From: Escherichia coli
GTDB lineage: Bacteria; Pseudomonadota; Gammaproteobacteria; Enterobacterales; Enterobacteriaceae
Direction: 5' to 3' (one strand)
DNA length: 64,000 nt
Assembly: GCF_003334815.1 (NCBI RefSeq)
Contig: NZ_QOWO01000002.1
Made by a program: the position numbers and the translations under genes. The notes under the pieces are model-generated. The model was not told the DNA's origin, did not search any database, and saw nothing but the letters and a program-made list of their open reading frames with translations. Of the stretch, positions 27,671 through 48,103 are shown one piece after another; the first letter of the stretch is position 1, and every line of letters starts with the position of its first letter.

Positions 27671-29323
27671 TTACGCGCTCAACAGTTGCTTCATGTCTTC
27701 TTCAACAGTGGTGATAGAACGCAGGCCGAATTTCTCGTTCAGCACCGCCAGCAGGTCTGGTGTCAGGAAACCAGGTGCAGTCGGGCCGGTGACGATATTT
27801 TTCACGCCCAGAGAAAGCAGCGTCAGCAGAATGACGATCGCTTTCTGTTCAAACCAGGAGAGCACCAGCGACAGCGGCAGATCGTTGACACCGCAGCCCA
27901 GTTTCTCTGCCAGAGTGACAGCCAGAATAATCGCTGAGTAAGCATCGTTACATTGACCTGCATCTACCAGACGCGGCAGACCTTCGATATCGCCAAACTC
28001 AAGTTTGTTAAAGCGATATTTACCACAGGCGAGGGTCAGGATCAGGCAGTCATCCGGCACGCTGGTGGCGAAATCGGTGAAGTAGTGGCGCTCGCCGCGT
28101 GCGCCGTCACAGCCACCAAGCAGGAAGATATGACGCAGTTTTTCACGGCTCACCAGATCAATCAGCGTATCAGCAGCGCCAAGCAGCGTCTGGCGACCAA
28201 AACCCACGGTGATAAGGTGCGGAATTTCGCTGTACGGGAAGCCTGCCATCTGTTGCGCCTGGGTGATAACCGCAGAGAAATCATCACCGTCCAGATGACG
28301 CACGCCAGGCCAGCCAACAATGCTGCGGGTCCAGATACGATCGTCATAAGCGCCTACGGTTGGGTCGATGATGCAGTTCGAGGTCATCACGATGGGGCCA
28401 GGGAAACGAGCGAACTCCACTTGCTGATTCTGCCAGCCGCTGCCGTAGTTACCGACCAGATGCTTGAATTTACGCAGCTCCGGGTAGCCATGCGCAGGCA
28501 GCATTTCGCCGTGGGTGTAGACATTAACGCCCGTGCCTTCGGTCTGTTCCAGCAGGTTGTAGAGATCTTTGAGATCGTGACCGGAAATCAGAATGCATTT
28601 ACCCGCCGTCGCTTTGACGTTGACCTGGGTTGGCGTCGGGTGACCGTATTTACCGGTTTCGCCTGCATCCAGAATGCTCATCACTTTGAAGTTCATCTGG
28701 CCGATTTCCATTGAACACTCAAGAAGCGCGTTCATATCGGCAGGCCAGGTCCCCAGCCACGCCATGATTTTATGGTACTGGGCATAAATATCGTTGTCGT
28801 ATTGACCGAGAACATGCGCGTGTTCCATATAGGCCGCCGCACCTTTCAGGCCATACAGGCACAGCAGACGCAGGCCGAGAATGTTTTCGCCAATCGCCGC
28901 TTTATCTTTGTTAGGGGTAAATTCTGCTGCCTGACGTTGCAGCTCGCCGAGATCGTCGCTCACCAGTTGCAGGTCAGCCATCGGGTTATCGACGCGCGCG
29001 TTGGCATCTACAGCCAGGCATTGCGCTTTCAGCGCCTCGCGCAGGGCAATCGCTTCACGAGCGTAGCCGACAATACGCGGAGAATCGAAGTTAACGTTGG
29101 TCAGGGTTGAGAAAAAGGCACGTGGCGCGAAGCTGTCAACATCGTGGTTGATGATGCCGTATTCACGCGCTTTTACCGCCCAGGCAGAAAGCCCTTGCAG
29201 CGCCGCGATGAGTAAATCCTGAAGGTCAGAAGTTTCCGCCGTTTTACCACACATCCCCTGCGCGTATGAGCAGCCGTTTCCTGCCGGAGTACGGATAGTT
29301 TGTTCACATTGCACACAAAACAT
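27671..29323 (-). CDS. hcp: Hybrid-cluster protein Hcp (hydroxylamine reductase/NO detox)
   Basis: ORF from ATG 29323 ([29 protein letters not shown]-terminal Cys motif). Confidence 0.95.
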
Positions 29324-29466
29324 GATCACACCTTTTAAAGTTATATTTAATATACATGTTTAAGGTTAAGACGCTTAACGCGGGGATAAAAGGGATTTTT
29401 CATGCAACTTTAAGGGAGATTGATTTAGCGCAATTTTGGCGGCAGGGATCTACCGCCAGAGAGGTA

Positions 29467-30366
29467 TTACGCAGAGAAAAAGGCGATGAGGATCGGCACT
29501 AACAGGCTAAGAATAAAACCGTGAACAATTGCCGCCGGGACCATATCCAGCCCGCCAGTACGTTGAAGAACGGGCAGGGTGAAATCCATTGATGTGGCAC
29601 CGCATAAGCCCAGTGCAGTAGAGCGGCTGCGGCGAATCAGCCCAGGGATCAACATAATAGCAATCAGTTCACGGGCCAGATCATTAAAAAACGCCGCGCT
29701 CCCGATTACCGGACCAAAAGATTCGGTCAATAAAATACCGGAAAGAGAATACCAGCCGAAACCGGAGGCCATTGCCAGCGCGGTATTGATGGGGAGATCA
29801 AGAATAAAGGCGTTAATTAAACCACCAATTAATGAACTGACAACCACCACCACGGCGACAATCATTCCCCGGCGATTAAGGACAATCTGCTTTAAGGTCA
29901 TGCCATTATTGCGCAACTGAATACCAACGAGGAAAAGTAGCAAAATTAACGTGTATTCACTGGCTTCGGTCGCGTGTTGTAAGAAAGCCAGTCCACTTAG
30001 ACCAATGGCAAAACCAATCACTACTACGCCGCACAGTTTTAGCGACTCCAGCGCCATCGCAATACGCGACGGGAGTTTTTCTTGCTGATGGTGGTTGCGC
30101 CACGGCAGGCCTCGCTCCAGCCACATCAGGGCGGCAATATTACACAGTAAAATAACGGTAATACTGACGGCAGAATAATGCAGAATCGCCAACAGGTTAC
30201 TGGCGAGGTTATCGAGAAACGCCAGACTGATACCCATAAAAAAGAGAATAAGGTAAACCATCCAGCTTAATAGCTGATTAATAACTTTTAACGCAGCTTG
30301 TTGGCGAAGCGGAATGAGGTAACCCACAATCAGGGGAACCAGAATGATTAACAGCCCAGAAAACAT
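29467..30366 (-). CDS. lysO: Lysine exporter LysO (YbjE)
   Basis: 299-aa membrane ORF from ATG 30366 (MFSGLLIILVPLIVGYL...); ORF-track start 30414 is an extension. Confidence 0.9.
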   Translation of the reverse strand: MFSGLLIILVPLIVGYLIPLRQQAALKVINQLLSWMVYLILFFMGISLAFLDNLASNLLAILHYSAVSITVILLCNIAALMWLERGLPWRNHHQQEKLPSRIAMALESLKLCGVVVIGFAIGLSGLAFLQHATEASEYTLILLLFLVGIQLRNNGMTLKQIVLNRRGMIVAVVVVVSSLIGGLINAFILDLPINTALAMASGFGWYSLSGILLTESFGPVIGSAAFFNDLARELIAIMLIPGLIRRSRSTALGLCGATSMDFTLPVLQRTGGLDMVPAAIVHGFILSLLVPILIAFFSA

Positions 30367-30539
30367 GAAAACCCAGTCCTTGCAAAGATGAAGTCGAAAT
30401 GCGCGATGACACACTACTGAAAGCGGAAGGACGAGTAAAGTTGCAATTAAAAGGAAATGTTATGCATAAGGAGCAGTAGAGTATTCGTTTTCATTTAAAG
30501 ATATTCTTGCGCTTTAATTACAAACTGCACCGATGTTGG

Positions 30540-31556: not shown

Positions 31557-31981
31557 ATCCACCTCAATTAAAAATTGACCCTGTGAAAAATATGGTCGTT
31601 TTATAGGGTCGTCGTAAAAAAGTGACGACGGAAATAATGCGCGGCTATTTTAAAAACGAAGGCGAGTCATTCACCAGATAAATAAATCCAGTAAATTTGA
31701 TTTAGGGCAACAGCGGGTTGCCCCATATAGTCATTTGTCTGATTGACAGTGTAGTGCACGCAAAAGATTTAATCCTTTAGGCGTAATAAAAAATAATTTA
31801 TCATGCTAATTATTTGATTTTGTTGTTTTTGCAGACTTATCAGCAAGAGGGAGTATAACGCGATTATTCGCTCATTTTTCAGACATTTGCCATGCTTAAA
31901 TGTGATGTCATCACGTATTAGCAAGGCCTTTCCCGTTATACTGCCAGCGTAAAGGATAAGTCACATATTTCTGGAGGGGAT

Positions 31982-47676: not shown

Positions 47677-48103
47677 TCAAATTCTCCCGTCATTATCACC
47701 TCTGCTACTTAAATTTCCCGCTTTATAAGCCGATTAAATGATGAATAAACGCCCCTGTTAATGAATATCTGGCATGTTGTACTAAAAATCGATGTTTTGC
47801 TTTGACAATCCCCTGGTGTTTTGCGAAAACATTCGAGGAAGAAAAAAAACAGTATTCTTATATGCGCATAACCATGCATGTAAATACCATGTTTACCGTG
47901 CTAGTGAAATCTACGTATGGCGTGGACAGACGCCATTCGTGATGTCGATAGCTGCCACAAGGCAACGGTCTTCTCACCGTAGACCCAGGCATTGCGCGCC
48001 GTGAATCTTCATGATTTCGGTCTATCGTGACGGGTAGCGACTCTGAACAGTGATGTTTCAGGGTCAGACAGGAGTAGGGAAGGAATACAGAGAGACAATA
48101 ATA

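Follow-up and report, generated by a model that had tools for sequence, protein, structure and literature searches.

We found that the 143-bp intergenic region between lysO and hcp in this Escherichia coli genome is, with a probability that we put at about 95%, the regulatory region of the hcp-hcr operon, in which FNR activates transcription, NarL/NarP provide an additional input and NsrR represses until the repression is relieved by nitric oxide (NO). The products of the operon are the hybrid cluster protein, which is an NO reductase, and the NADH reductase of that protein. Its promoter is a well-studied case of joint control by oxygen (FNR), nitrate/nitrite (NarL/NarP) and NO (NsrR) and is in routine use for reporting intracellular NO; the primary promoter-dissection papers for hcp are Filenko 2005, Filenko 2007, Chismon 2010 and Partridge 2009. 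The first-pass annotation of the window (i.e., the whole stretch of 64,000 nucleotides that was analysed) had attributed two motifs upstream of hcp to anaerobic (FNR) and nitrosative-stress (NsrR) control, and both assignments agree base for base with published sites. Letter for letter, the two motifs are the already characterised FNR and NsrR sites of this promoter, with no difference between the motif strings and the published ones, meaning that the regulation is known and that the result carries little weight as a discovery. Its value is rather in showing that such a first reading is able to pick genuine regulatory sites out of bare sequence; our analysis adds to this their precise positions, their statistics and a survey of how the hcp promoter sites are conserved across 85 species.

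The hcp locus and its FNR and NsrR sites

We used a 401-bp query centred on the promoter region, which matched 5,425 out of 5,426 complete E. coli genomes with 95-100% identity and beneath which the annotated genes were lysO and hcp. The gene order around the promoter is poxB, hcr, hcp, lysO (ybjE), aqpZ and ybjD. The start codon of hcp, an ATG on the minus strand at 29321-29323 (read 29323-29321), was taken from the list of open reading frames and from the RefSeq annotation of the identical E. coli sequence; it is preceded by a Shine-Dalgarno sequence (AAGG, 29334-29331, minus strand), and the stop codon of lysO (29469-29467, minus strand) marks the far end of the intergenic region. Given that hcp is encoded on the minus strand and that both motifs lie within the lysO-hcp intergenic region, they are to be read on the minus strand. 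A scan of positions 28800-30000 against Rfam, with E-values up to 1, matched no family. For comparisons between species we searched one genome per species for the N-terminus of Hcp by means of a degenerate pattern (MFCVQCEQT) and obtained 120 loci. Of these, 85 belonged to Enterobacterales and had enough upstream sequence; all counts out of 85 given below refer to them.

The first of the two motifs had been described as an FNR-like site at 29420-29433, and TTGATTTAGCGCAA is found there exactly (minus strand; TTGCGCTAAATCAA when read on the hcp strand), with its centre at 29426.5, i.e., 103 nt upstream of the hcp ATG. Table S6 of Myers 2013 (PMC3688515) has the same string as its hcp entry, where it is associated with a ChIP-seq peak and has a PatSer score of 13.11 and an ln P of -11.6, which passes the published threshold of -10.75. 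In that study the FNR peak at hcp was observed both by ChIP-seq and by ChIP-chip, and Table 1 of the same paper places the site at -72.5 from the transcript start and lists hcp-hcr as directly activated by FNR.

The second motif had been described as an AT-rich block, AAAGTTATATTTAATATACATGTTTAA, at 29337-29363. This block is present exactly and holds the NsrR operator, but the operator itself occupies 29338-29360, so that the block exceeds it by 1 nt on one side and by 3 nt on the other. The operator is an 11-1-11 inverted repeat, AAGTTATATTT-A-ATATACATGTT, for which no strand is assigned (on the hcp strand it reads AACATGTATAT-T-AAATATAACTT, 29360-29338); in other words, two AAGATGCATTT-like 11-mers in inverted orientation are separated by a 1-bp spacer, and the centre of the repeat lies 25.5 nt upstream of the hcp ATG. 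It is the same string as AAGTTATATTTAATATACATGTT, the hcp NsrR site in Table 4 of Mehta 2015 (PMC5320621), which is ChIP-seq positive, has an ln P of -23.87 and is second only to ytfE among the predictions in the CFT073 genome. In the same study, the NsrR ChIP-seq signal peaked 22 nt from the start codon of hcp, and nitrate induced hcp 43.7-fold in CFT073 (Mehta 2015, PMC5320621).

The regulatory effects at hcp to which we refer are taken from these and other published studies. Specifically, an nsrR mutation in Salmonella raises hcp mRNA 284-fold (PMC2884951), a Phcp::lacZ fusion serves as a standard reporter of NsrR and NO (PMC9052748), and both the FNR and the NsrR box were first predicted from an alignment of eight enterobacteria (Rodionov 2005, PMC1274295).

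Probable core promoter, upstream elements and proposed mechanism

Combining the published position of the FNR site (-72.5) with its centre at 29426.5 would place the hcp transcript start at around 29354, leaving a leader of about 31 nt. The NsrR operator would then span approximately -6 to +17, covering the start point together with the 5' half of the leader. The earlier placement of the AT-rich block in the leader upstream of hcp therefore needs extending more than correcting: it agrees with the part that lies in the leader but leaves out the probable overlap with the start point. A putative -10 hexamer, TAACCT, is located at 29363-29368 (minus strand, read 29368-29363), 8 nt upstream of the likely start; its positions T29368, A29367 and T29363 are conserved at 100%, 98% and 91%, respectively, whereas the three bases between them are variable, giving a TAnnnT pattern. 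Further upstream lies a conserved A-tract/T-tract, AAAAATCCCTTTTAT (29386-29400, minus strand; approximately -46 to -32), with a column identity of 74% vs 36% in the spacer at 29369-29385. This tract contains a putative weak -35 element (TTTTAT, 29391-29386, minus strand), which would be separated from the -10 hexamer by a 17-bp spacer, and it may act as a docking region for the C-terminal domain of the RNA polymerase alpha subunit. Scans of positions 29250-29550 detected no sigma-70 consensus promoter, as would be expected for an activator-dependent promoter, and no intrinsic terminator.

One could also explain this weak core by assuming that the hcp promoter is transcribed by the alternative sigma factor sigma-E, in which case FNR and NsrR would act on a holoenzyme other than that of sigma-70. 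Myers 2013 (PMC3688515) observed no sigma-70 ChIP enrichment at hcp-hcr and cited a report of sigma-E dependence, and the core that we detected, in place of a consensus sigma-70 promoter, consists of no more than a TAnnnT -10 element together with a -35 that is very weak. By contrast, the conserved T-A-n-n-n-T lies at the right distance from the likely start, and FNR-dependent promoters normally have weak core elements; moreover, repression by NsrR in the nitrate-free medium used in that study would itself erase the polymerase signal, and we tentatively attribute the missing sigma-70 peak to this repression. Considering this, we regard transcription by sigma-E as improbable.

The intergenic region also contains a third potential input, which the first-pass annotation had overlooked, namely a candidate NarL/NarP site of the 7-2-7 type (TACCTCT-CT-GGCGGTA) at 29451-29466 (minus strand; 29466-29451 on the hcp strand). 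It has 2 mismatches to TACYYMTNNAKRRGTA, i.e., 12 out of 14 positions match two inverted TACYYMT heptamers with a 2-bp spacer. The candidate adjoins the lysO stop codon. It is centred at 29458.5, which would be -104.5 with the transcript starting at 29354, and the NarL/NarP position given in Filenko 2005 and Chismon 2010 reportedly agrees with this. Matches to the NarL/NarP consensus with up to 2 mismatches numbered 4 in the window against 2.4 expected, which is not significant alone, and conservation of the candidate is only moderate, with a column identity of 68% vs 63.5% in the remaining intergenic columns. NarP sites and a dependence of the hcp promoter on NarL/NarP have been described previously (Rodionov 2005, PMC1274295). 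A literature search on the control of hcp by OxyR yielded no statement on a binding site.

Taken together as a regulatory region controlled by FNR, NarL/NarP and NsrR, these elements suggest the following mechanism. Without oxygen, a [4Fe-4S] FNR dimer would bind TTGCGCTAAATCAA at -72.5 and act as a class I activator of a weak sigma-70 promoter with TAACCT as its -10 element and a poor -35, while phospho-NarL or phospho-NarP, bound to the 7-2-7 site at -104.5, would supply the nitrate/nitrite input. A [4Fe-4S] NsrR dimer on the 11-1-11 repeat (approximately -6 to +17) would physically block RNA polymerase, either at formation of the open complex or at exit from it, until NO nitrosylates the NsrR cluster, upon which NsrR would come off the DNA and hcp-hcr would be derepressed. 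With activation by FNR and repression by NsrR combined in this way, the operon would be on only when conditions are anaerobic and NO is present. In this scheme, the placing of FNR as a class I activator and the occlusion of the polymerase by NsrR are modelled on what is established for class I activation by FNR/CRP and for repressors of the Rrf2 family.

Two further elements lie in the same region. One is a 9-bp stem with a 4-nt loop (TGGCGGTAG-ATCC-CTGCCGCCA, 29437-29458, minus strand, read 29458-29437), which may be a stem-loop or a palindrome. Its start lies 9 nt past the stop codon of lysO and its end 4 nt short of the FNR site, and it shares sequence with the promoter-proximal heptamer of the NarL/NarP candidate. 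As RNA it folds at -21.7 kcal/mol (z = -6.2). The stem is retained across 22 enterobacterial genera, among which the loop varies, and 94% of cells pair. Covariation is minimal, and as the stems hardly vary, RNA structure and DNA palindrome are not separable from these data. The tail (AAAAUU) has no U-tract, meaning that the hairpin is not a canonical terminator; it could be a structure of the lysO 3' end, an insulator or a protein site. The other element is an NsrR-like 11-mer, AAGTTGCATGA (29401-29411, minus strand, read 29411-29401; approximately -57 to -47), located between the FNR site and the -35 element and scoring 9.6 bits. At this position 9 of the 85 loci, including Yersinia, have AAGTTGCATTA (13.2 bits), an 11-mer which was also found under the hcp ChIP peak in CFT073 (Mehta 2015, PMC5320621). 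An NsrR-like half-site was present here in only around 25 out of 85 Enterobacterales loci, i.e., about a quarter, which rules it out as a general feature of hcp promoters. We think it unlikely, even if worth stating, that the hairpin is a functional element of its own or that the lineage-restricted half-site serves as a second operator. Were this the case, the hairpin would be either an atypical terminator or 3'-end protector insulating hcp from lysO read-through or the site of a further regulator, and the half-site would be a second operator at -57 to -47, keeping FNR from contacting the alpha subunit of the polymerase.

Statistical strength and conservation of the two sites

We quantified both sites by the weight-matrix scan that the first-pass annotation had proposed, leaving the sites in question out of the matrices. 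The FNR matrix was built from 61 ChIP-seq-associated sites in Table S6 of Myers 2013 without the hcp and aqpZ/ybjD sites, and the NsrR matrix, which is symmetric, was built from the 25 other distinct sites in Table 4 of Mehta 2015 without the hcp site. The NsrR operator scored 26.2 bits (13.3 and 12.7 bits for its two halves) and was the best match in the 64-kb window, the runner-up being an 18.1-bit match 50 bp upstream within the hcp promoter itself. From the exact score distribution, 26.2 bits are expected 2.7e-5 times per 64 kb and, at intergenic composition, 9e-7 times per 143 bp. Among random 64-kb sequences from a first-order Markov model, 1 out of 300 reached 26.24 bits in a first run and none out of 400 did so in a rerun with a new seed (maximum 25.3 bits); the significance of the operator rests on the exact calculation and not on these 700 simulations, in which 1 reached the score. 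The FNR site scored 12.9 bits, third in the window and within the range of its training sites (11.8-21.5 bits), a score that chance should produce about once in 64 kb but only 0.0065 times in an intergenic region of 143 bp. A consensus search allowing up to 2 mismatches found 46 FNR matches in the window vs 32 expected, which is near chance. The FNR sequence match on its own is therefore weak, and it is where the site lies, how well it is conserved and what ChIP-seq has shown in the literature that lead us to take it as real.

The conservation of both sites was evident in all 85 Enterobacterales loci. Specifically, upstream of the hcp ATG each locus had both an FNR-type site (10.8 bits or more, at a distance of 100-111 nt) and an NsrR-type site (20 bits or more, at a distance of 23.5-32.5 nt). 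The distance between the centres of the two sites was 77.5 bp in 51 out of 85 loci and between 76.5 and 79.5 bp in 80 out of 85, with a full range of 72.5-83.5 bp. In an alignment of 86 distinct Enterobacterales sequences, column identity was 96% for the FNR site and 87% for the NsrR site, compared with 36% for the promoter spacer (29369-29385) and 63.5% for the remaining intergenic columns. The TTG and ATCAA columns of the FNR site were invariant in these sequences, and within the NsrR site the conserved columns were those of the two 11-mers, with the central and degenerate positions varying.

The hcp loci of Aeromonas (L008, L015, L030 and L041 among others) contain a perfect FNR site, TTGATCTGCATCAA (TTGAT-N4-ATCAA), 108 nt from the ATG, but at the proximal position they show no NsrR-type repeat and have AACAGACAACTGAAATGTCCAAT instead, which reaches at most 7 bits; the exception is A. 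schubertii (L020), with 14.4 bits at the NsrR position. This suggests, as far as sequence comparison goes, that hcp in Aeromonas is under the control of a different NO-responsive regulator, or of none. In Shewanella, the repeat found where the NsrR operator would lie is divergent.

These data bear on the possibility that the FNR-like 14-mer is a chance match and that the anaerobic induction of hcp is indirect or acts via another site. As far as the window as a whole is concerned, a 12.9-bit match is unremarkable (roughly one per 64 kb), the excess of consensus matches is small (46 vs 32), and equally good matches occur within the coding sequences of clpS and macA. The odds are very different for the intergenic region, where only 0.0065 such matches are expected and where the site coincides with a published FNR ChIP-seq peak (Myers 2013, PMC3688515); a chance match would, furthermore, be expected neither to keep the TTG and ATCAA columns invariant in 86 distinct sequences, nor to hold a near-constant distance to the NsrR operator, nor to recur as a perfect TTGAT-N4-ATCAA at the same position in Aeromonas. 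We thus consider a chance match highly improbable. No more credible is the idea that the AT-rich block is a feature of composition (a discriminator, translation enhancer or nucleoid-protein site) and no specific NsrR operator, since its location over the start point and leader, where AT-richness is common, and the 39% G+C of the intergenic region are outweighed by an expectation of 9e-7 even at that composition, by conservation that follows the two 11-mers and not the central or degenerate positions, by the published ChIP-seq evidence for NsrR (Mehta 2015, PMC5320621) and by the 284-fold rise of hcp upon loss of nsrR in Salmonella (PMC2884951).

Several other matches were found in the window. 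The top match of the FNR matrix (14.0 bits) is TTGATTTAGGGCAA at 31697-31710, in the intergenic region between aqpZ and ybjD, which is identical to the hcp FNR site at 13 out of 14 positions and is likewise located at a ChIP-seq peak (Myers 2013, PMC3688515); a NarL-like 7-2-7 match lies 74 bp from it, at 31770-31785. Among NsrR-like 23-mers, ATGTTGTACTAAAAATCGATGTT at 47774-47796, which lies between trxB and lrp, is the NsrR site that Table 4 of Mehta 2015 (PMC5320621) gives for trxB. Another, AAGTTGCAATTAAAAGGAAATGT at 30438-30460 (16.1 bits), precedes the start codon of lysO by 72-94 nt; this 23-mer is absent from the list of NsrR sites in Mehta 2015 and may be a chance match. A third, at 3616-3638 (17.2 bits), lies between the 3' ends of convergent open reading frames (2903-3469 on the plus strand and 3644-5329 on the minus strand), where no promoter is expected, and is therefore probably due to chance.

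Comparison with known regulatory systems

The closest known system is the hcp-hcr promoter of E. coli K-12, which is the same locus, with both motif strings as published and with the same order of genes (poxB-hcr-hcp-lysO). The comparison with CFT073 reveals one difference, in that the upstream NsrR-like half-site is AAGTTGCATGA here and is listed as AAGTTGCATTA there (Mehta 2015, PMC5320621). The NsrR operators of ytfE and hmp have the same 11-1-11 architecture (of the AAGATGCATTT-N-AAATGCATCTT type) and, as the hcp repeat probably does, lie across elements of the core promoter; the hcp repeat differs from that of ytfE at 6 out of 22 positions. Unlike ytfE and hmp in this comparison, hcp combines NsrR with an upstream FNR site of probable class I type. 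At hmp, FNR acts as a repressor. In Myers 2013 (PMC3688515), the glyA/hmp entry for FNR is given as a predicted site without a ChIP-seq peak.

With respect to FNR, hcp resembles class I FNR/CRP promoters, whose activator sites are centred at -61.5, -71.5/-72.5 or -82.5: its FNR site, at the published -72.5, would be positioned one helical turn upstream of -61.5, and it shares with them a weak core and an A/T-rich stretch between the activator and the -35 element. Most FNR-activated promoters are of class II, with the site at -41.5, and the -72.5 position at hcp represents a rarer arrangement (Myers 2013, PMC3688515).
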